The position numbers and the translations under genes were made by a program. Positions 8,049-54,101 of a stretch of DNA of 54,101 nucleotides are shown here, piece by piece. How positions within the stretch are numbered: position 1 is the first letter of the stretch; each line of letters opens with the position of its first letter. Source of the DNA: Prorocentrum cordatum (taxonomy: Eukaryota); assembly GCA_963575745.1 (NCBI GenBank), contig CAUYUJ010000263.1, positions 62,001-116,101 of the forward strand. The letters are read 5' to 3'. The notes beneath the pieces are model-generated. The model had not been told where the DNA came from, ran no database searches, and saw nothing but the letters and a program-made list of their open reading frames with translations.

Positions 8049-8079
<31 letters not shown>

Positions 8080-19830: not shown

Positions 19831-20193
19831 CCCCCCCCCCCTTCTCGCCAACGACCCACCCGTGACCCACCGACGACCCGCCAGCGGCGACCCACCCAGC
19901 GACGCTGACAGCGGTGGTTCTATGAAGTATTGGCGCCTGTCGGCGGAGGACGATGAGGCGGAGGACGAGGAGGAGGAGGAGGAGGAGGACTTGGAGGAAG
20001 AAGAGGATGAGCAGGAGGAGGAAAGAGGAAGAGGAGGAGGAGGACGACGAAAAGGAAAATAACGAGGACGATGACGAGGAGGAGAAGGAGGATGAGGAGG
20101 AGGAGGAGGAGGAGGAGGAGGAGGACCCCCAACCAAGGCAGAATGGCATTCTCCCTAGGGAGGGGTTACGATTTCCTCAGGACCCTCCCCCCG

Positions 20194-20226
<33 letters not shown>

Positions 20227-20339
20227 TGCCCCCCCTGCCCAGGACCCCTCCCCATGCAGACCCCCCCCCTCATACGCCAAAAGGGTCGGCGGATTTTGGT
20301 CGCGAGCTTTCGTCGACCAACATTGCAGTTGAGAGCGAC

Positions 20340-20349
20340 TTGGCTCAAG
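20340..20349 (+). other. Partial SL relict upstream of the Ub-HET-LRR gene
   Basis: TTGGCTCAAG equals the last 10 nt of the dinoflagellate SL. The match is short and could be chance. Confidence 0.35.
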
Positions 20350-20574
20350 CAGCGCCCTCGGCGAAGCCTCACGCGACCCCACGCCCCGGCGTGCACCGTG
20401 ATCCTCTCGCAGGGCGCCCAGCCCGCTCGCCGCGCACCGGCGACGGCCCCACAGGTGCTGAAGAATGAGCTCCCGCAGGTCGACGGCCTGAAGGAGGAGG
20501 GCGGCAGCTTGGCGGAGGCTGCGGTGCCACGCCTCTGCGGCTCGCCAGAGCGCAGGCTGCACACCCTGGCTGGC

Positions 20575-22690
20575 ATGTGCGGCGGCGGGCTGGGGGAGGG
20601 GACGCCGCCTGAGATGCCGTCCCGCTCCGCCGCCTCGGCCGAGGTCAGGATCGAGGCCAGCGCCCACGTGGCGCAGACGGACAGGACCTTCCAGCAGCCT
20701 CTCCAGATCTTCGTCAAGACCCTGGCTGGAGAGACGATCACGTTGCACAAAGTGATGCCGACAGAGCGCATTGAAAGTGTGAAGGCGCTCATTCGGCACA
20801 AGGAAGGCATTCCTTGCGAGATGCAGCGTCTCGTCTACAGTGGAAGGCAGCTTGAAGATGGACGTGCACTTGGCGACTACAACATCACGACAGAGTCCAC
20901 GCTGTTCGTAACTTCCGTTCTGGTTGGAGGTGTGCAGACCGGGGGCGCCAGCGCGTCTTCCGAGAGCGGGGAGACGGGCGCACGGGCGGCTTCCCCGCGC
21001 ACGTCCGCCGTCAGCTCGTTCGCGGGATTGTGCTCCTGCCTCCGAGGCCGCCAGCTGGGAACGGTTGGCGTCGCCGAGGCGCAGGCTCCCGCCGAGGACG
21101 CCAACGAGGAGCCCATCGACCCCAGCCAGTTCACGGACGCCGCGAGCCTGTTCGACGCGCTGGCGTGCACCGTGCAGGGCCTGCACCCCGTGCGCCTGGT
21201 CCGCATGTCGTGGCTGCTGCAGCAGCGCGGCACGGTGCTGAAGCGGCGCCAGGATCGAGGCCTCCTAGACGGGGTCGGAGCAGATGGGGTCGGAGGATCG
21301 CGCCGCATCGCCGATGCATCGCCGATGCGGCTCGATGCGGAGCCCGATTTTCTTCACGCGGACGTCGCCGATGCATCGCCGACGTCGACGTTGCATCGCC
21401 AGTGCATCGCCAGTGCATCGCCGATGCATCGCCGATGTATCGCCGATGCGGCGCGATCCTCCGACCCCATCTACTCCGAGCCCATCTAGGAGGCCTCTAC
21501 AGGAGCTGCCCGAGGAGGCGTTCGTACCTGCAGGGGAGCTCCGGCAAGTCTGGGAAGCTGGCGGGCGAGGAGGCCGAGACAAGGTGGCACCCATCATCAC
21601 CATCTCCTTCTGCTGGGATACACGAGACCACCCCGACCCCACGGGGAAACAGCTGGAGTTGGTGATCGATACTCTGGAGAAGGAGCGCCACAAGTACGCC
21701 GCACTCAGGTTGGGCTTCCCGGGGTTCACCGAGATGGGGATCTTCTGGGACTGGCCCTCGCTGCTGCAGGGTGACCCTGACAAGGCCGAGGCAGCGAAGA
21801 AAGCGGCACTGCAGGAGGGTAAAAGCGACAAAGAGGCCGAGGACGCCGCGGACAAGGCCAAGCGCACGCCCGCCGAAAAAGCTGCGTTCAAGCATGCGCT
21901 CCACAAGACCATGGATCTGTGGTATGCCCATCAGGGCACCACAGTCTTCCTCCTGACGCAGCACCCCCAGGACCGAGGCAGCACGCGCGAGTGCGGGTAC
22001 GACCAGTCGGGCTGGACGACGTACGAGCGGTGCTCCACCGAGCAGATCAAGAATGTGCATCGGCATGTGGCGAAATGGAGCGCCGTGGCCGACCTGGGGC
22101 AGGGAGCGGGAGCCAGGGCGGCGGGCAGGAAGTGGCCGGTGGGCCCCGACGAGTTCGACCGGCTCATCGAGGGCAAGACCTTCACGAATGGCTCGGACCG
22201 CGAGACGGTGAAGCAGATCTTCCGCCGGATGAGCCGCGTGCAATTGGGCAGCGTGACGGAGCTGGCCTTCGACGGGATGAAAGGACCCCTGAGCCCCGAC
22301 GAGGCGGCGGGCCTCGGCGGCTGCCTGCGCCTGTGCGCCCGCCTGGAGAGGCTGAACATGAGCGATTGCGAGATCGGCCCCGCGGGCGGCGAGGCACTTG
22401 CGGCTGCGTTGCCCTCGCTGACCGCCCTGCAACACCTGGTCCTGGACAACAATGCCCTGGGCGAGGTGGGCGGCCAGGCCATTGCGGCCGTGCTGCCCTC
22501 GCTGCCCGCCTTGAGGGTGCTGATTTTGCAGGGCAACGACATCGGCGAGGGGGTGAAGGCCATTGGCGCAGTGCTGCCCTCGATGCCCGCCCTGACGGAG
22601 CTGTATCTGGGCGTCAACAACATCGGCGACGGGGCGAAGGCGGAGCTGCGGGCCGCGTGCGAGGCGCGCCGCGTGCGTCTGAATATCTGA
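20575..22690 (+). CDS. Ubiquitin-like domain + HET/TIR-like domain + RI-type leucine-rich-repeat protein; exons 20575-21252 and 21503-22690 (621 aa if this ATG is used)
   Basis: Ubiquitin fold [14 protein letters not shown]...[34 protein letters not shown]...LVGG (20701-20931). HET-like motifs [35 protein letters not shown]. About 28-aa LRRs from ~22250. The true start is uncertain; candidate acceptors at ~20454 and ~20478 suggest possible upstream exons. Confidence 0.85.
21253..21502 (+). mobile_element. Introner-like element forming a 250-nt phase-0 GA-AG intron (TIR element 21255-21499, TSD CAGGA)
   Basis: About 70-bp TIRs. CAGGA at 21250-21254 and 21500-21504. Splicing cag|GA...tacAG|gag restores [11 protein letters not shown]. 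Confidence 0.85.
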
Positions 22691-25499: not shown

Positions 25500-25723
25500 T
25501 CAGAGCCCCGAATCATCAGGGGTAACTCGGGTCAGGGATAACTCGGGTTCGTTTTTCGGGAATCCGAACCCGAATTATCCTGGACCCGAGTTACCCCGGA
25601 TATTTCGGGCGTCCAGAGCCCCGAATCATCAACCCGGGTCAGGGTTATTTCGGGCTCGTTTTTCGGGAACCCAAACCCGAGTTACCCCGGACCCGAGTTA
25701 CCCCGGATAACTCGGGCGTCCAA
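25500..25723. mobile_element. Dimeric palindromic MITE, copy 1, TSD TCATC
   Basis: Two ~110-bp tandem units. TCATC at 25495-25499 and 25724-25728. Removal rejoins MEVMM|THGVRPQ in frame. Confidence 0.9.
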
Positions 25724-25927
25724 TCATCATCACCTCCATCGCCTTCTGGTCGCCGTCACCCGTAGCATTGATGGCATCGGCCGATGCGCTTTGCACTGCA
25801 GCTGAGGTGCTGGCCTGCGCCGGCGGAGCGAAGCCCTTCGTGCAGTCCTTCACCGCCTCGTCGATGTCTGAAGCGGACATGGCTTTCCCTTTGGCCGCTG
25901 TTGTGGCAATCTCCTGAGTGTGGTAGT

Positions 25928-26157
25928 TCAGAGCCCCGAATCATCAGGGGTAACTCGGGTCAGGGCTAACTCGGGTTCGTTTTTCGGGAATCCAAACCCG
26001 AGTTACCCCGGACCCGAGTTACCCTGGATAATTCGGGCGTCCAGGGCCCCGAATCATCAGGGGTAACTCGGGTCAGGGCTAACTCGGGTTCGTTTTTCGG
26101 GAATCCAAACCCGAGTTACCCCAGACCCGAGTTACCCCGGATAACTCGGGCGTCCAA
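25928..26157. mobile_element. Dimeric palindromic MITE, copy 2, TSD GTAGT
   Basis: Same family and orientation as copy 1. GTAGT at 25923-25927 and 26158-26162. Confidence 0.9.
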
Positions 26158-37114: not shown

Positions 37115-40339
<3,225 letters not shown>

Positions 40340-46551: not shown

Positions 46552-47087
<536 letters not shown>

Positions 47088-47656
47088 ATAGTCTTCCCAA
47101 CATATTGATCAGTAGTATACTTAATAGTGTTCGTATGATTTCAACGCGTCCCCTAATCATTAGTATACTTAATAGCGTTTGTATTATTTCAACGCGTCCC
47201 CTAGTCTCCCCCCTCGTCGACGCACGTCCATGCTGGTGCAGAGGAGGCTAAGGCTACGTTCTGGCGGTCAAGGTCCAGTTGTTCCACCGATTAGCTTCTG
47301 GAACTGCCCATGTTGCGGCCAAAAGCTGATATCGCAAACAAGATCAGTTAGAGAGTCGCGAGCAAGGCCAGAAGCAAGTCGCACGCCACCGCCGCATCGC
47401 CCGCCCTGTTCCGCCCACCCCGTGGTGATGACGATGCCGATGTTCACGACTCTATGGTTTTGATGGTGCTGGTGACGTGTGCGAGCTCTGCGAGGCCTGC
47501 TCGTGTTGTTGCCTACTGGCGGCAGCCCGCACAGGGCGCGCCTCTGCCCACGTCCTGTCCTTCGCCCCAACCCCGTCTCGGACGGCAGGGGAAACAGGCC
47601 TCTGATGGCCGCTCCCGGCCGCCTTCGCGGGCCCGCGCGGGCAGGGTTACGACGCT

Positions 47657-48703
47657 GAGAGGAGGAGGAGGAGGAGGAGGAGGAGGAGGAGGAGGAGGAG
47701 GAGGAGGAGGAGGAGGAGGAGGAGGACAAAGCTTGGTGGAGGAGGAGGAGGGGGAGGAGGAGGAGGAGGAGGAGGAGGAGGAGTAGGAGGGGCACGAGGA
47801 GCTGCCCCGAGAAACAGCCAGGCCTGTCTCCGATCCAGATGGCCCTCTCGGATCTGCCCCGCAGGGGAGTCTGGTTCACGATCCAGCTTCCGGCGTCCCC
47901 GTCCGTCCAGTGCGCCTCCCTGGCCTGCCCTCCTCCCGGCCTCCTTTTCCTCCTACTTCTCCCCCTCCCAGCCTCCTTCTCCTCCTCCAAGCCTCCTTCT
48001 CCTCCTCCTCCTCCTCCTCCTCCTCCTCCTCTCCGCTCCTCCTCCAAGCCTCCAAGCCTCCAAGCTCCAAGCCTCTCCTCCCTCCTCCAATCCTCCTCCT
48101 CGTCCTCCTCCCGCTCTCCTCCGGCAGGCAAGCCTCCTCCTCCTCCTCCTCCTCTCCTCCTCCTCCTCATCTCCTCCTCTCCTCCTCCCCTCCTCCCAGC
48201 CGCCTCCTCCTCCTCCTCCTCCTCCTCCTCCTCCTCCTCCTCCTCCCCTCCGCCTCCTCTCCTCCTCCTCTTTCTCCTCCTCCTCCTCCTCGTCCTCCTC
48301 CTCCTCCTCCTCCGCCTCCTCCTCCTCCTCATCCTCCGCCTCCTCATCCTCCTCCCAGCCTCCTCCTCCGCCGCCTTCCGCCCTCCGCTCCGACGCCCAA
48401 GGCCGACAAGGCCCGCCCCCCTGCCTCCCCGGCGGGCGAGCGGCGGGACCGTGCACCTCTCCGCGCGGCCGCGGGGGGCGAGCGGCGGGCCCTGGAGGAG
48501 CACTGCGCCTACGAGGGCGGCCCGTGCGGCGGCGAGGGGGCTGGGAGGAGGAAGAGGTGGGAAGAGGGAGGAGGAGGAGGAGGAGGAGGAGGAGGAGGAG
48601 GAGGAGGAGGAGGGAGAGGAAGGACGAGGACAGGGAGGCGAAGGAGAGGAGGAGGATTAGGAGGAGGAGGAGGAGGAGGAGGAGGAGGAGGAGGAGGAGG
48701 AGG
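47657..48703. repeat. (GGA)n/(CCT)n low-complexity block
   Basis: Alternating gga and cct tracts. Confidence 0.9.
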
Positions 48704-49022
48704 ACCAGTGTAAACCCAAGAGTCATCAACGATGTTGGAATTAACCCTCCCCCAAGCTCCCTCTTCGTAGGCCCCTACAACGGGTCATTTCCATTGAGGG
48801 AACTGCCTCGTTGGAAGACAACCGTTTGAAGACCGTGAAGCATGCCAAAACATTTTTCTCAGGATTTCCACGCCGTGGTTCAACCTGACTGCTGCGTCCT
48901 GACGATCTGGAATCGTACAAGAACGCCAATTGTGGGACTTCAACACCGCGAATCAACCTAACTAGTGTTCCCGCATAATCCTGAATCCTTCCAAACGCAA
49001 TTTCTGGTAAGTTGATCATGGG

Positions 49023-49403
49023 AATCCGTGAAACTCTTCCAAAAGGTTAGAACGAATTCGCGCGGCGCTAAGTCGAGAGCCACCTTTTGAAACGGAACCG
49101 CCCTCAATCCGTGAAACTCTTGCCCATCTTGAAAAGGGAATGTGTGCGGCGCTAGGGCGAGAGCCACAGTTTGAAAACCACCCGCCCTCATGTGTGCGCG
49201 GCGCGCAGGCGAGAGCCACATGTTGAAAACCGCCCGCCCTAAATCCGTGAAGCTCTTGCAAGTCTTGAAATCGCATGTGCGCGCTCAGGCGAGAGCCACA
49301 TGTTGAACATCACCCGCCCTCAAGCCGTGAAGCTCTCGCAAATGTTTAATACGAATGTGCGCGGCCCTCAGGCGAAAGCCACGCGAAACGCCCGGCCCGC
49401 CCT
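49023..49403. repeat. ~80-bp diverged tandem repeat (four full units plus one truncated)
   Basis: Unit aa(t/g)ccgtgaa(a/g)ctct...gcgc..ggcgagagccac..ttgaaa..ccgccct. Confidence 0.85.
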
Positions 49404-49694
49404 AAGACATTGCTTCGGGGTGCGACAGGGAGATTTATTTATAAGGAAGGAGGAGGAGGAGGAGGAAGCTTGGAGGAGGAGAAGACGGAGGAGGAGGAGG
49501 AGGAGGAGGAGGAGGAGGCTGGGAGGCGGGAGGCGGGAGGCGGTAGGCGGTAGGTGGGAGGCGGGAGGCGGGAGGCGGGAGGCGCAAGGAGGGCTTTTTT
49601 TGACTGCACTTGGCTCGTTGCAAGTAGCTTGAGCTGGGTGGCCGAGGTCGGCCAGGCGGCAGACAGAGCCCGCCTAGCGGGCACAGCAAAGGTT

Positions 49695-51287
49695 CTCCGC
49701 TCCTGGTCCGTCCGCAGGCAAAAGCGATTCTTCGCCATTGGACCTGCATGATGGGCGGGGGAGGTATTGGCACCGAAGGGGAGGGAGGGGGAATAATATG
49801 AAGAGAGGGGATCGGTGCCGTGCGAGAAACACTGAGCGCGCCATCTAGGCGTTGCCCTATGCGGGCAGCGCTGCACGACCGAAGAGCAGCAAAGCTAGCC
49901 TCAGGGACGGCCACCTGGGAGCATGGCTTAACCATGGAAATGAGCGGGATGAGTAGGAAGAGGGCCAAAATGGCTTTGCCGCGCTGTAGGGCGGCCGTGG
50001 GGGAGCGGACCAGGAGGGAGAGGCTGGCGTTGCCGCCAAGAGATTAGGAAACCCCATCGGTAACGTATGTGACCGGAAAAGGGGGCAGGTGAGAGAGCGC
50101 CTGTGCTGTGCTGGACGTCTTGGAGTAAACGAGGGAAGAGGGGAGGGATGAACATAAGGGAGGGATAGGGATTATCTTGTCCAGCCAAGCAGCGCTAGGG
50201 CGCGGTAGCTGTCAGTAGAGGTACGCCCCTCTGACGGCCAGCATTAGCCGAGAGTTGCTCGGCAGGTGGGATGTACTGAGGCGGCATCTTTACTTGCCGC
50301 AATAGCCATGAGACTAGGAAGCCCCATCGGTTACGCACGTGACCGGAAAAGGGGCAGGTGAGAGAGCGCCTGTGCTGTGCTTGGCGTCTAGGTGTAAACG
50401 TGGTGAGAGGGGAGGGAAGAATATATGGGAGGGAGAGGGATTATCTTGCCAAGCCAAGCAACACTAGGGCGCGGTAGCTGTCCGTAGAGGTACGCACCTC
50501 TGATGGGCAGCATTAGCTGAGAGTTACTCGGCGGGTGGGATGTGCTGCGGTGGCAGCTTTGCTTGCCGCAGTATCGACTCAGCCGTGGCGAGTCTGCGAA
50601 TTGCGCTGTGAGCATTGCTCCGACCGCTCTTCTGGTAGCGTGGCTGCTCAAAAGTGTCGCTTTGGCCTGGCCGCAATGCTGCGGCAAGAATGAGTGAAAC
50701 TAGAGACTGGTGCTGGCTACAGCTCTTGCAGCTGGCCCGCCCTCTGGATGGGGCTGAAGAGAAGAGCTGAAGGGCCCGCTGCGACGAGACTATAGGACAG
50801 TTCGGCCGCCCTTAGATTGGAGCAGCATAGCTCCTCAGCTGGTGAATTACGGTACGTGTGGCTGGCTAGGGCTATCTAGGTGGTGGGCTGCCGATATAAG
50901 CAGAGACTAGGGTATTAGGCTGGCCCATCACCTATGAAGACTCAGCCGTGGCGAGTCTGCGAATTGAGCTGTGAGCATTAGCTGTCCGCTCTTCTGGTAG
51001 CGGGGCTAGCTAAAAGTGTCGCGTTGGCTGCACTAGTGCGGCAGAGAGGTGTGAAGCTGGAGACTGGTGCTGGCTACGACTCTTGCAGCGGGCCCTTGGA
51101 ATGGGGCTGAATGAAACAACTGAAGGGCCCGCTGCGACGGGATTGCAGGACGGCTCAGCCGACCTTAAATTGGAGCAGCACGGCTCTCCAGCTGTAAATA
51201 TTCGGCTCGTGTGGCTGGCTAGGGCTGTCTAGGTGGTGGGCTGCCGAGGTGAACAGAGACTAGAGTATTAGGCTAGTCCACCACCTA
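49695..51287 (+). ncRNA. Putative tandem array of structured RNA domains: A0 (~49695-50020), A1 (50041-50310), A2 (50311-50575), B1 (50576-50938), B2 (50939-51287)
   Basis: Tandem diverged repeats with many stems and compensatory changes. G-U pairs favour the plus strand. Expression is not shown. Confidence 0.55.
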
Positions 51288-51359
51288 TTGGTTGCGCCGA
51301 GGTCGCCCGCGTCGACCTGGGATGGCGCCGGCTGAGAGGCGGCACGCTCTAGGGCTCGC

Positions 51360-51880
51360 TCATGCACCGCGCGGCTGCCGTACGGCCGCCGCCGCCGCCG
51401 TTCGCGCCCTGGCCTCCTGCGCTGCGGCCTGCTGCTGGCTGAAGTGGTCCAGCATCATGGTCTCGACCTCTGAGATGGTCGCCAGGCCTGGAGCCTCTAT
51501 CCATTCCCAGTCCCAAGTTTCGACGACCTGGCCGTCGATGACGTCGAGCGACTTGAGCTTCCAGACGAACGGGTAGAGCATGCCGTTAGGCATCTTCCAC
51601 TCGCCAGGGTACGTAGCTGGCCACCACTTTTTGAACTCCTTGGTGGCGGCAGTGCACTGGGAGCCCTGCCACGCCGAGCCCGACCGCGTGTCGCCTGGTA
51701 GGCCGAAGAGCTCCAGCGCGTTGGGCGGCGCCTTGCCTGGCTCGGCCGCGGCCCCCTGCGGGGGCGTGGTCCCCTCTGTCGCCGCCGAAGCGCGCCCGCC
51801 CGCAGGAACCACGGCTGCGTTGCGCGCGCTGAGAGGAGGGGGAGTGCGGAAGGCGCGAAAAGAAATAGCCCATAAGCCAA
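51360..51880 (-). CDS. Orphan Trp-rich protein (start uncertain)
   Basis: Non-repetitive, globular-looking sequence KKWWPATYPGEWKMPNGMLYPFVWKLKSLDVIDGQVVETWDWEWIEAPG with GC3-biased codons. Confidence 0.45.
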
Positions 51881-51909
51881 CGGCCAGATATGAGTGAATC
51901 CTAACTGGC

Positions 51910-53048
51910 TTATGCGTGCGCCTGGGTGAGGAGGACCCTCCTGATGGGCCGACTGATGCATGCTTGGCCCGGCGCTGGGTCGATAGGGATGAGGATGGTT
52001 CCGCTGCGCATGTTGACCCGCAGCGAAAGGCCAGCGCGAAAAGGTATGCCCGTGCCGAATAAAATGGACCGTGCATCGGTCTCCTGAAGAATGGGGAGGT
52101 GAAAAAAGCGTGGCCTCTCCACTGAAGATGGCAGCCGGGTCTCCTGCCCGTGGAATTGCTCCATTAGGAGTCCTACATTGATGGGCAGTGGAGACCAGAG
52201 CGGAATGTGACCTGCCGTGATCACTACCAGCCACTGTACGACTGTAGGCTGCGGTGGCACGGCCTCAGTGGGTGCGCAGCGGACGTCGCCGTGCTCGAAC
52301 TGCGGCAGGTGCTGCGCATCTGGGGTCGGCATGGCCTGAGGGGCTATGGTGCAGGGAGGCGGAGGATTCGAGAGAGGTAGGACAACGGAAGGCAAAATGG
52401 CCGCACCAGGATCATGGCCTGGAAGTCAATTAGGATGGGGCTGCCAGCCGCTGCATCCTCCAAAAGACGCTGAGGGATGAGAGCAGGCTGTTCCCAGGCC
52501 CCCGTGTGGAGGAAGTCCAGAAACATCTGGTCGGGCACGTAGACAGTGACTAAACTTATAGCGGGTGAGAAACGGGCAGCATAGGGGCCTTCACCCGCTG
52601 CGCGATGAGGAGAAATGTGGAGTAAGTTGGGAGAGTTGGCCTCGCACCAACGCCCATACCACCGCTCGACTGTGTGATTAGCGACATCGGGCAAGTCCAT
52701 GTGGAGCTCGGGGCCTACGGTAGCGCGGGCGTGTGGCAGAGCAGGCGGCCCGCTCTCGAGCTGCCATGTAGCTTGCCATTGGGGTACCGAGGCAGGCTGG
52801 TACACAGCGGTAGGAGACAGTAAAAGAGCGTGGCGTCTCGAGCCGCCGCTGAGAAAGCGGTATGCCTGCTGGTGGGCCAGGAGAAGCCGTTCCGCCAGGT
52901 ACTCCCAAAAGGGCCATGCGCTGCGAAAGTCTGGGGGCAGCCGCTCCATAATGCGGAGCAAATCTAGGTGCCTCCCCGGGGCCGCTTCAGCAGCGGGCAT
53001 GTCCTCGTCTGCGTCGGCGTTGCCCAAGGTGCTGAGCTCGCGCATCAT
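51910..53048 (-). CDS. Orphan protein(s): ORFs 53048-52344 and 52395-51910, probably one gene with a frameshift
   Basis: ATG start, overlapping collinear ORFs and complex composition. No recognised domain. Confidence 0.4.
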
Positions 53049-53141
53049 GGCCTGTGGGGGGAGAAGCGAAGGAAAGGAAGCTAAGAGAGGTAAGGAGGGA
53101 AGAGGTAGGCCTGGGCTGAATTACAGCTGCATGGCGTAAGT

Positions 53142-54092
53142 TTAACGCCTGGCGGCATCGCCTCCTTCATGAGGCTTGCGCGGCCGCCTGGGCGAGAGGC
53201 GCTGACCGCAATGCGAGAGGCTTTCGCCTTCTCTTAACTGAAGTTTGAGGCGCTCCCTGTGTATCCTGTCGATACGGAGCTGGTCCTGCCTATGCTCCTC
53301 TTTGAGCTGGGCAATCCTATTCTCGTGCGCCTTGAGGACTGTACTGCGCTGCTCGTCCGATGCTGCGTCTGGCGCTTCGGCAGGCAAGTGCGAGCGCGGA
53401 GCCGCATGGGCAGCACGGTGAGACTTGCGGGCCTTATGGTGCCTTGGAGGAGGAGAGGCTGGAGGCGAGGCCGTGCCGCGGAATGCCTGCGGGCTGCTTT
53501 GAGCCTCGGCTGGTCCGCGGCGCTGTGGCGCCGGCTGCTTGAGTGCACTCTTGCGCGGCCCCGTGCTTCGGCGCGAATTGTATGCCACCCTAGGGGCTTT
53601 GGCCGTGAATTCGTCTGTAAAGGAGACCTGTTTGCGCTTGCGAGTGGCAGAGGCGCGGGGCACTGCTGGCTGTTCAGCTGGCCCCGGAGAATCCTGCGGG
53701 GGAAAAGGGGAAGAGACAGAGGAATATGAGGCATCGTCTACTTGCGCAAGCCTCCTAGGAAACGCTGGCGAACTGGAGGCCCTGCGCGGCTGACGCCTGT
53801 GGGGGGCTGCAACTTTGCGTGATTCGCGCGGAGGTGGAGGTGAGGGACGCGCAGCATGGGGTGGAGAAAAAGGAGAGGCGGCCTGGCCGATCCAGCCTTC
53901 CGGAATGGCGGCTTTGGCCTTCACTGTGGGATGATCAGGGGGAGGCAAGGGGGGCATGGCGCGCGGAGGTGGCGGAGGATGAAAGGTGGCTCCATAGATG
54001 TGCCTGCCGCGTCCCACGGGGGGGCCGTTGAAATCGCCAGGTGGGCGTGGGGGGCCTGAGGCTGAGGGGGTGCTAGACAGGGAGCGCTGCAC
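53142..54092 (-). CDS. Pro/Arg-rich disordered protein with a C-terminal coiled coil (may begin beyond the window)
   Basis: 316-codon ORF with heptad-like VLKAHENRIAQLKEEHRQDQLRIDRIHRERLKL. Confidence 0.4.
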   Translation of the reverse strand: MQRSLSSTPSASGPPRPPGDFNGPPVGRGRHIYGATFHPPPPPRAMPPLPPPDHPTVKAKAAIPEGWIGQAASPFSPPHAARPSPPPPRESRKVAAPHRRQPRRASSSPAFPRRLAQVDDASYSSVSSPFPPQDSPGPAEQPAVPRASATRKRKQVSFTDEFTAKAPRVAYNSRRSTGPRKSALKQPAPQRRGPAEAQSSPQAFRGTASPPASPPPRHHKARKSHRAAHAAPRSHLPAEAPDAASDEQRSTVLKAHENRIAQLKEEHRQDQLRIDRIHRERLKLQLREGESLSHCGQRLSPRRPRKPHEGGDAARR

Positions 54093-54101
54093 TGCCTTGG
54101 C

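Follow-up and report, generated by a model that had tools for sequence, protein, structure and literature searches.

Repeat units and open reading frames at the locus

The window, by which we mean the whole stretch of 54,101 nucleotides that was analyzed, carries two adjoining head-to-tail pairs of repeat units, A1-A2 and B1-B2, flanked on one side by a self-complementary module (A0) and on the other by four open frames of the minus strand (Table 1). Tandem Repeats Finder (TRF), a repeat finder and self-BLAST were concordant on both pairs, so that the tandem array claimed in an earlier note on this DNA is real, and the stems quoted there are indeed present in the sequence. A1 and A2 repeat with a TRF period of 269 bp and 87% matches (34 substitutions in 269 ungapped columns), and B1 and B2 with a period of 353–363 bp at 83% identity (66 substitutions in 353 ungapped columns). 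Within the B pair, the first 41 nt of B1 are 98% identical to B2, as compared with 83% overall, and this is also where coverage is deepest in the family. No significant sequence similarity was found between A and B when their alignment was compared with shuffles, and according to self-BLAST the A and B units are confined to this one locus within the 54-kb window.

The A0 module had been described as a far more diverged A unit built on the same plan. The stems on which this description rested exist and fold: ctcctggtccg at 49700–49710 pairs with cggaccaggag at 50007–50017 in the closing stem, ggcaccga at 49769–49776 pairs with tcggtgcc at 49812–49819 in an inner stem, a hairpin with a tatgc loop occupies 49851–49869, and all three are part of the minimum-free-energy fold. 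The kinship with A, however, did not stand. Local alignment of A0 gave z = 1.3 to A1 and 2.5 to A2, neither value exceeding what shuffles give. A covariance model built on the 146-nt core of A, which scores A1 and A2 at 180 bits, reached only 6–7 bits (E 5.7–7.9) in A0, among 44 noise hits. A0 is a separate, strongly self-complementary module and no diverged A unit.

Table 1. Positions, in the window, of the repeat units, the terminal features and the adjoining open frames.
Feature	Position	Strand	Basis or remark
T8 run at the family edge (A8 on the minus strand)	49594–49601		flanks diverge here; read as poly(A)-tail remnant
Terminal segment with short hairpins	49602–49689	-	sequence; covered by X2 and X9 contigs
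A0 module	49690–50034		~335 nt self-complementary, ~20-bp closing stem; non-homologous to A1/A2
Unit A1	50035–50304		TRF, repeat finder, self-BLAST
Unit A2	50305–50575		TRF, repeat finder, self-BLAST; 87% identical to A1
A helix	A1 arms 50110–50117 and 50178–50185; A2 arms 50379–50386 and 50447–50454		encloses purine-rich loop
Unit B1	50576–50938		repeat finder, alignment to B2
Unit B2	50939–51295		TRF, repeat finder, self-BLAST; 83% identical to B1
Final open frame, with its stop at 51360	51360–52163	-	copies continue from the array into the frame
Further open frame	51910–52395	-	orphan family, shifted reading frame
Further open frame	52344–53120	-	orphan family; relatives P0002–P0007
Further open frame	53142–54101	-	orphan family; cut by window end

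Three of the four minus-strand frames lie in one reading frame, with 51910–52395 shifted against them. The two frame shifts are conserved among copies and could mean either introns or separate frames, of which introns would fit simple retroposition badly. The C-terminal ~110 amino acids of 51360–52163 are conserved in an unnamed protein of 180 amino acids (P0001; 78% identical in the pairwise alignment), and the likewise unnamed proteins P0002–P0007 share 37–58% identity with 52344–53120. The frame ends of the relatives coincide with those of the window frames. At most four relatives per frame searched were detectable among 1.8 billion representative proteins, and a search for longer relatives of the frames found none.

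Domain searches were of little help in naming these frames. Pfam gave no usable match for most of the minus-strand frames of 51360–54101 at E up to 10 (51711–51909 and 53142–54101 were searched at E up to 0.1 only, and 53049–53120 was left out), PHROGs gave nothing usable for the minus-strand frames at E up to 1, and sequence searches of the PDB with the frames returned nothing below E = 0.45. The 2.7 kb of the element inside the window showed no reverse transcriptase, endonuclease, integrase, transposase or RNase H domain; the element continues past the window, so that its 5′ end and any target-site duplications fall outside it. Two ESM Atlas candidates, Pam3_Gp34 for 51360–51710 (score 0.95) and phage tail tube families for 52344–53048 (score 0.91), were rejected, their recognition values being below threshold and hmmscan lending them no support. 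AlphaFold models of the frames, with mean pLDDT of 57 and 33, were too poor for a fold search. As to the setting, the window has a G+C content of ~60% and dense microsatellites, and is eukaryotic, because a ubiquitin domain and leucine-rich repeats occur among its open frames.

Copies of the region and where they end

Parts of 49600–51350 are present in 17 of the 19 listed public runs, belonging to nine studies, with word shares of at most 0.27; among those listed, none that contains the array is on record as RNA. Contigs of four of the runs (X1, X2, X9 and the marine metagenome run X3) were aligned to 49590–51500, which gave 161 contigs from X1, 64 from X2, 78 from X3 and five from X9, the last, possibly an RNA run, covering 49597–50125 together with small GC-rich bits. 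Across X1, X2 and X3 the contig identities extend from below 90% to above 99%, and the X1 contigs are spread over all bands (32 at 99% and above, 61 at 95–99%, 50 at 90–95% and 18 below 90%). Based on this spread in X1, the region therefore belongs to a multicopy, diverged repeat family.

Several contigs join parts of the array that are apart in the window, each joint resting on one contig per run. A joint from 50043 to 50314, found in X2 and X3, represents a copy with a single A unit, one from 50304 to 50939 in X3 fuses A1 to B2, one from 51245 to 50938 in X1 and X3, with a B-end variant in between, represents an extra B unit, and a fourth leads from 51051 to 50246 in X1 and X3. Such joints are in register, and the number of A and B units thus differs among copies. 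Further, at 10 of the 14 listed A/B variant sites the other copies show the letter of the sister unit, and much of the divergence between A1 and A2 and between B1 and B2 is therefore private to the window copy. The earlier guess that a mobile element is involved fits a dispersed multicopy family in which the number of units varies and which has a definite end, and the host of the array is a multicopy, probably mobile, element.

The family stops at about 49602, next to a T-run whose length varies between copies. In the only three copies concerned, the flanks diverge at 49595–49602 next to T-runs of at least 5 (X9), 8 (window) and at least 16 (X2) residues: one X2 contig has T16 ahead of 49595, the match of one X9 contig begins at 49597 and is preceded by 435 nt of unrelated sequence, and another X9 contig begins exactly at 49602. 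The X1 and X3 contigs have no depth in the bin 49590–49653 and depths of 30.6 and 5.15 in the bin 49654–49717, one X3 contig spanning 49687–50037. Given such thin coverage of 49602–49689 in X1 and X3, the end may differ between subfamilies.

At the opposite side of the array, contigs extend beyond B2 and enter the minus-strand frame whose stop is at 51360 (depth in bins 51382–51500; loose ends at 51491). In the minus-strand sense the flanking T-run becomes an A-run after the element, and we infer a minus-strand orientation and retroposition of the element. Based on the end of the copies at the T-run near 49602 and on the orphan frames of the minus strand, the array has the appearance of a non-coding tail at the 3′ end of an element that terminates in poly(A); an A-tail is likely, and membership among the non-LTR (poly(A)-type) retroposons is possible.

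An exact 22-mer from the start of B had no match in metagenome contigs and none in genome contigs, and protein-guided scans, with one alignment against metagenome and viral contigs and with a second against viral contigs, found no relatives. A viral-contig locus that emerged from a 17-mer search (L001) was dismissed as a chance match, the shared stretch being only 21 nt long. The spurious minus-strand frame 49928–50188, used as a protein query to reach variants of the A helix arms in other assemblies, had no match either, and the literature on haptophyte repeats yielded nothing specific. The repeat family appears to be undescribed; full-length copies could allow it to be classified.

Fold stability and base changes between units

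The earlier note had recognized no rRNA, snRNA, tRNA, group II intron or hammerhead core in the region, and both the Rfam scan that it had proposed and ARAGORN agreed with it in coming back empty. With Rfam 15, no match was obtained in 47000–54101 at E up to 1. When the limit was relaxed to E = 10, nine matches in 49590–51360 scored 13–19 bits against gathering scores of 44–83, falling 26 to 66 bits short of them. The families covered by these scans, with no match near the gathering score, include ribozymes, snoRNAs and the tRNA-derived and 7SL-derived heads of SINEs. Models of the hammerhead and other self-cleaving ribozymes gave no match even at E up to 10, and ARAGORN found no tRNA genes.

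The stability of the predicted folds, expressed as z on the plus and minus strands, was -2.7 and -2.9 for A1, -3.7 and -2.2 for A2, -1.3 and -1.1 for B1, and -4.6 and -4.0 for B2. For A0 it was -2.65 and -6.92, with none of 100 minus-strand shuffles as stable. In 31 control windows of 300 nt taken from the rest of the window, z had a mean of -0.8 and a standard deviation of 1.8, three of the 31 lying below -2.5 and one at -6.4. Inverted repeats in the region are thus above average, yet within the local range, and the strand is not readable from fold stability. Consensus folds, compared with column-shuffled alignments, gave z = -3.0 (plus) and -3.6 (minus) for A, and -7.8 (plus) and -4.0 (minus) for B.

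The units had been said to differ at many positions and still to keep their stems. In our substitution test, one unit was folded as the reference and the changes of the other were set against random placement. On the plus strand, 11 pairs were broken from A1 to A2 (9.9 expected), 14 from A2 to A1 (13.5 expected), 21 from B1 to B2 (23.6 expected) and 20 from B2 to B1 (24.8 expected). Broken pairs were near random in seven of the eight tests, the exception being A1 to A2 on the minus strand (7 vs. 12.0, P = 0.011), and the units cannot be said to keep their stems when pairs are broken at about the random rate. From B2 to B1, five doubles were seen on the plus strand (P = 0.015), and substitutions at paired positions were rarer on the minus strand (P = 0.004).

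The counts from an RNAalifold pipeline were compared with those of 80 column shuffles. Double-changed pairs in A numbered three, as against 1.3 expected on the plus strand (P = 0.087) and 1.2 on the minus strand (P = 0.062), and in B two against 3.3 (plus, P = 0.875) and one against 3.25 (minus, P = 1.0). Pair-count covariation, computed from two sequences per unit, was matched by 64 of 500 shuffles for A and by 129 of 500 for B, values that formally cannot reach significance because there are only two copies per unit. One-sided changes that keep a pair, again compared with column shuffles, amounted to 6 (7.2 expected) for A on the plus strand, 2 (4.0) for A on the minus strand, 15 (14.0) for B on the plus strand and 6 (9.7) for B on the minus strand. 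G-U pairs had been taken to point to the plus strand; the one-sided changes are at chance on both strands, and A0 is relatively more stable on the minus strand, which leaves such a marker unsupported.

Variants found in other copies were placed on the same folds, using 28 of the 40 that were listed (214 in all) and leaving out the 12 in 51381–51461. Among the 14 listed for A and B, nine are unpaired, three keep and two break a pair. The 14 listed for A0 comprise seven unpaired and six pair-breaking variants and one kept as G-U, with none compensated, and none of them falls in the main A0 stems. The two breaks in A and B fall on two of the five pairs that RNAalifold called compensatory (A columns 87/98, B columns 86/118), which are T-T mismatches in other copies, among the variants listed.

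One helix of the A units behaves differently. Its A1 arms, GCTGGACG and TGTCCAGC, become GCTTGGCG and TGCCAAGC in A2, which verifies the two compensatory changes that had been reported there; both are Watson-Crick to Watson-Crick doubles within 8 bp, and the helix belongs to an interrupted stem of ~20 bp. In a structure-free test covering all helices of at least 7 bp compatible with both copies, with 600 column shuffles, A contained one helix with two doubles, which five of the 600 shuffles equaled (P = 0.008). B contained no helix of this kind, and with A and B taken together the probability of finding one is 0.08. Template-switch mutation is reported to yield multibase compensatory changes (PMC8794818). 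The change in the A helix may be a trace of selection acting on a stem in the RNA or DNA of the element, or equally of a single template switch between the arms, and the direct repeat CCAAG-CCAAG that the altered 3′ arm also makes in A2 hints at a local copying event. As in the template-switch hairpin mutations reported (PMC8794818), a multibase complementary change affects both arms of an existing stem, whereas here the arms are ~60 nt apart and the two copies are too few for ancestral reconstruction.

The terminal stem of B, whose partner was said to change between the units, gave a different picture. Other copies have a perfect partner, GCCCACCACCTA, from which the partners in B1 and B2 are each one C-to-T transition away, a different one in each unit, leaving G-T. 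These are two independent changes off a perfect stem; the B terminal stem is a case of one-sided decay, and neither compensation nor a strand marker.

Cumulatively, the proposal that selection acts on the RNA fold is met by pair breakage at about the random rate and no excess of compensation, one A helix alone standing out. The evidence for RNA-fold selection is weak, and we infer a lack of fold-dependent function. Compensatory-looking changes between just two tandem copies are, more generally, weak evidence of selection on RNA.

Nature of the array and comparison with known elements

We consider it probable that A1-A2 and B1-B2 are an internal variable-number tandem repeat, located in the terminal, non-coding part of a dispersed element that a GC-rich, microsatellite-rich marine eukaryote has in many copies. 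The array is thus most likely nothing more than a variable-number repeat of the usual sort within a repeat family. Read along the minus strand, the element would consist of the orphan frames, the stop at 51360, then B2, B1, A2, A1 and A0 as an untranslated tail of ~1.75 kb, and the A-run 49601–49594, and would be a poly(A)-ended, retroposon-like unit. Unequal recombination in register, or slippage during replication, would have duplicated its units, and gains and losses of units among copies would come about in the same way. The hairpins would then be inverted repeats carried along with each duplicated unit, and most of the differences between units would represent ordinary decay. Repeat families commonly carry tandem duplications outside their coding parts, and satellites are known to arise from these.

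We counted several observations against an internal variable-number repeat, namely the doubles in the A helix, the z of the consensus folds, the minus-strand z of A0, the absent reverse transcriptase, endonuclease, integrase and transposase domains, the frame shifts, the position of the 5′ end and target-site duplications beyond the window, and the thin coverage of the end in X1 and X3.

Some of these bear on the idea that the tail has a function in cis as a structured RNA or DNA, for instance as a set of 3′-UTR stem-loops for the replication machinery, which we regard as unlikely. The RNA would then be the minus strand, in the sense of the open frames, and selection would maintain the long A stem and the closed A0 module. 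The two compensatory pairs in an 8-bp helix of the ~20-bp interrupted stem are what such a structure might leave behind, as are the minus-strand z of -6.9 for A0, a stability that none of 100 shuffles reached, the main A0 stems free of the 14 variants listed, and the first 41 nt of B at 98% identity vs. 83% overall. The helix, however, has a family-wise P of only 0.08, compensatory pairs in B are rarer than expected by chance, six of the seven listed variants at paired A0 positions break their pair with none compensated, and other copies, among the variants listed, have mismatches at two of the five pairs that RNAalifold called compensatory. Stems that are invariant are uninformative either way, and template switching can make paired double changes without selection (PMC8794818). 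Distinctly unlikely, in our judgment, is a poly(A)-type element, as yet undescribed and confined to a lineage of marine algae-like eukaryotes, that encodes only orphan proteins and has in its tail modular cis-acting RNA (A0 and the long A stem) needed for copying and kept by compensatory evolution. If cis-acting modules of this kind were real, the duplicated modules would be functional dosage variants and not junk.

That the 1.7-kb region is the 3′ LTR of a minus-strand LTR retrotransposon, with the tandem repeats lying in U3, seems very doubtful to us. Tandem repeats are common in LTRs, the region directly follows the last open frame, and its minus-strand end ...GTCA fits a TG...CA terminus, but no second copy of the region lies in the 49.6 kb on one side, integrase, reverse transcriptase and RNase H domains are absent from the 2.7 kb upstream, and the three visible flanks open with a T-run of variable length, for which A-tails are the better fit.

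We hold it to be highly improbable that the array is a row of non-coding RNAs, each a structured molecule in its own right, or of ribozymes or guide RNAs, all transcribed off the plus strand, and the earlier reading of it as an array of selected structured RNAs draws no support from the fold, covariation or Rfam results. The consensus fold of B is steadier on the plus strand (z of -7.8 vs. -4.0), and this G-rich strand offers several possible G-U pairs, but its shuffles also give G-U pairs and the one-sided changes that keep G-U are at chance. Moreover, no Rfam family matches, self-cleaving ribozymes included, A0, A and B have no significant sequence similarity to one another, with A0 missed by the covariance model of the A core, and the number of units is free to vary among copies. 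A purely local minisatellite or segmental duplication outside any dispersed element, compatible as it is with units at one locus only within the 54-kb window, is scarcely credible, being already contradicted by hundreds of diverged contigs, from several runs and different studies, that cover both units and flanks.

Considering known systems with structured tails, non-LTR retrotransposons and the SINEs that depend on them have 3′ stem-loops, which the element's reverse transcriptase recognizes. The array resembles them in being a hairpin-rich non-coding tail between the last frame and an A-run, with one compensated stem, but the tail is unusually long (1.75 kb), the part of the element in the window holds no reverse transcriptase, and the role of the stems here is putative. 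Penelope-like elements and retrozymes contain hammerhead-bearing repeats; they share with the array the tandem structured non-coding modules on a retroelement-like unit and differ from it in the ribozyme, the array having no match to the hammerhead or any other self-cleaving ribozyme at E up to 10.

Among known kinds of repeat, the array comes nearest to the tandem repeats that lie inside transposable elements. Such repeats include the VNTR of SVA and the monomers of mouse L1, and the array would work as they do, with unequal exchange altering its number of units. The foldback transposon Tetris of Drosophila virilis has internal tandem repeats (PMC4079207), and the MITE DTC84 of Donax trunculus contains tandem repeats (PMC3879986). 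Unlike these two, the present element has two unrelated unit types side by side and orphan frames adjoining them, and no expansion into long satellites was seen. In common with Tetris and DTC84, it carries short arrays of units of a few hundred base pairs inside a dispersed element, with in-register junctions and a variable number of units.

Conserved start of the B unit

The first 41 nt of the two head-to-tail B units in the tail of the element (50576-50616 in B1 and 50939-50979 in B2) are 98% identical, as compared with 83% over the whole unit, and contain a small hairpin, GACTC..GAGTC. It is at these same 41 nt that summed contig depth peaks in all three DNA runs (3/3). For X1, one of the public runs whose contigs were aligned to 49590-51500, the summed depth reached 978 at the B-unit start vs. 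72-364 in the remaining B-unit bins (50614-50933 and 50998-51317).

Open frames and outer flank of the element

The ends of the minus-strand frames of the element are conserved positions. For the last frame (51360-52163), one near-length relative was found, and a search of 1.84 billion representatives gave four relatives of frame 52344-53120 with an E-value of 0.001 or lower. ESM Atlas feature matches of these frames to Pam3_Gp34, from a phage, and to tail tube families were set aside; HMM searches gave no confirmation of them.

On the outer side, close beyond the end of the element (~49602), lies a separate tandem array at 49023-49400, with a unit of 80-84 bp, ~4.5 copies and 62-84% identity, which may be part of either the element or its insertion site. 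From this array to position 49584 the sequence consists of (AGG)n and (GGAGGCG)n microsatellites.

Other features of the window

Coordinates of features in the window
Feature	Position	Strand	Remarks
Open frames	20011-22690	plus	ubiquitin domain; leucine-rich repeats
Orphan open frames	51360-54101	minus	very few relatives
Two tandem arrays	25524-26156		periods 107 and 113 bp, 86-96% matches
(TAG) x180	46552-47092		92% matches; very long simple repeat
(GT) x146, overlapping (GTGC) x77 array	38877-39222		very long simple repeat
C-run, 53 nt	20183-20235		very long simple repeat
G-run, 30 nt	8050-8079		very long simple repeat

The two tandem arrays are made of the 16-nt motifs ACCCGAGTTACCCCGG and TCAGGG.TAACTCGGG, which are mutual reverse complements and thus give a foldback-like structure. 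The plus-strand frames, in which the ubiquitin domain was matched at E = 1.9e-18 and the leucine-rich repeats at E = 4.3e-11, are ordinary genes of the host, and the leucine-rich-repeat frame contains an 81-bp coding tandem repeat (22476-22641).
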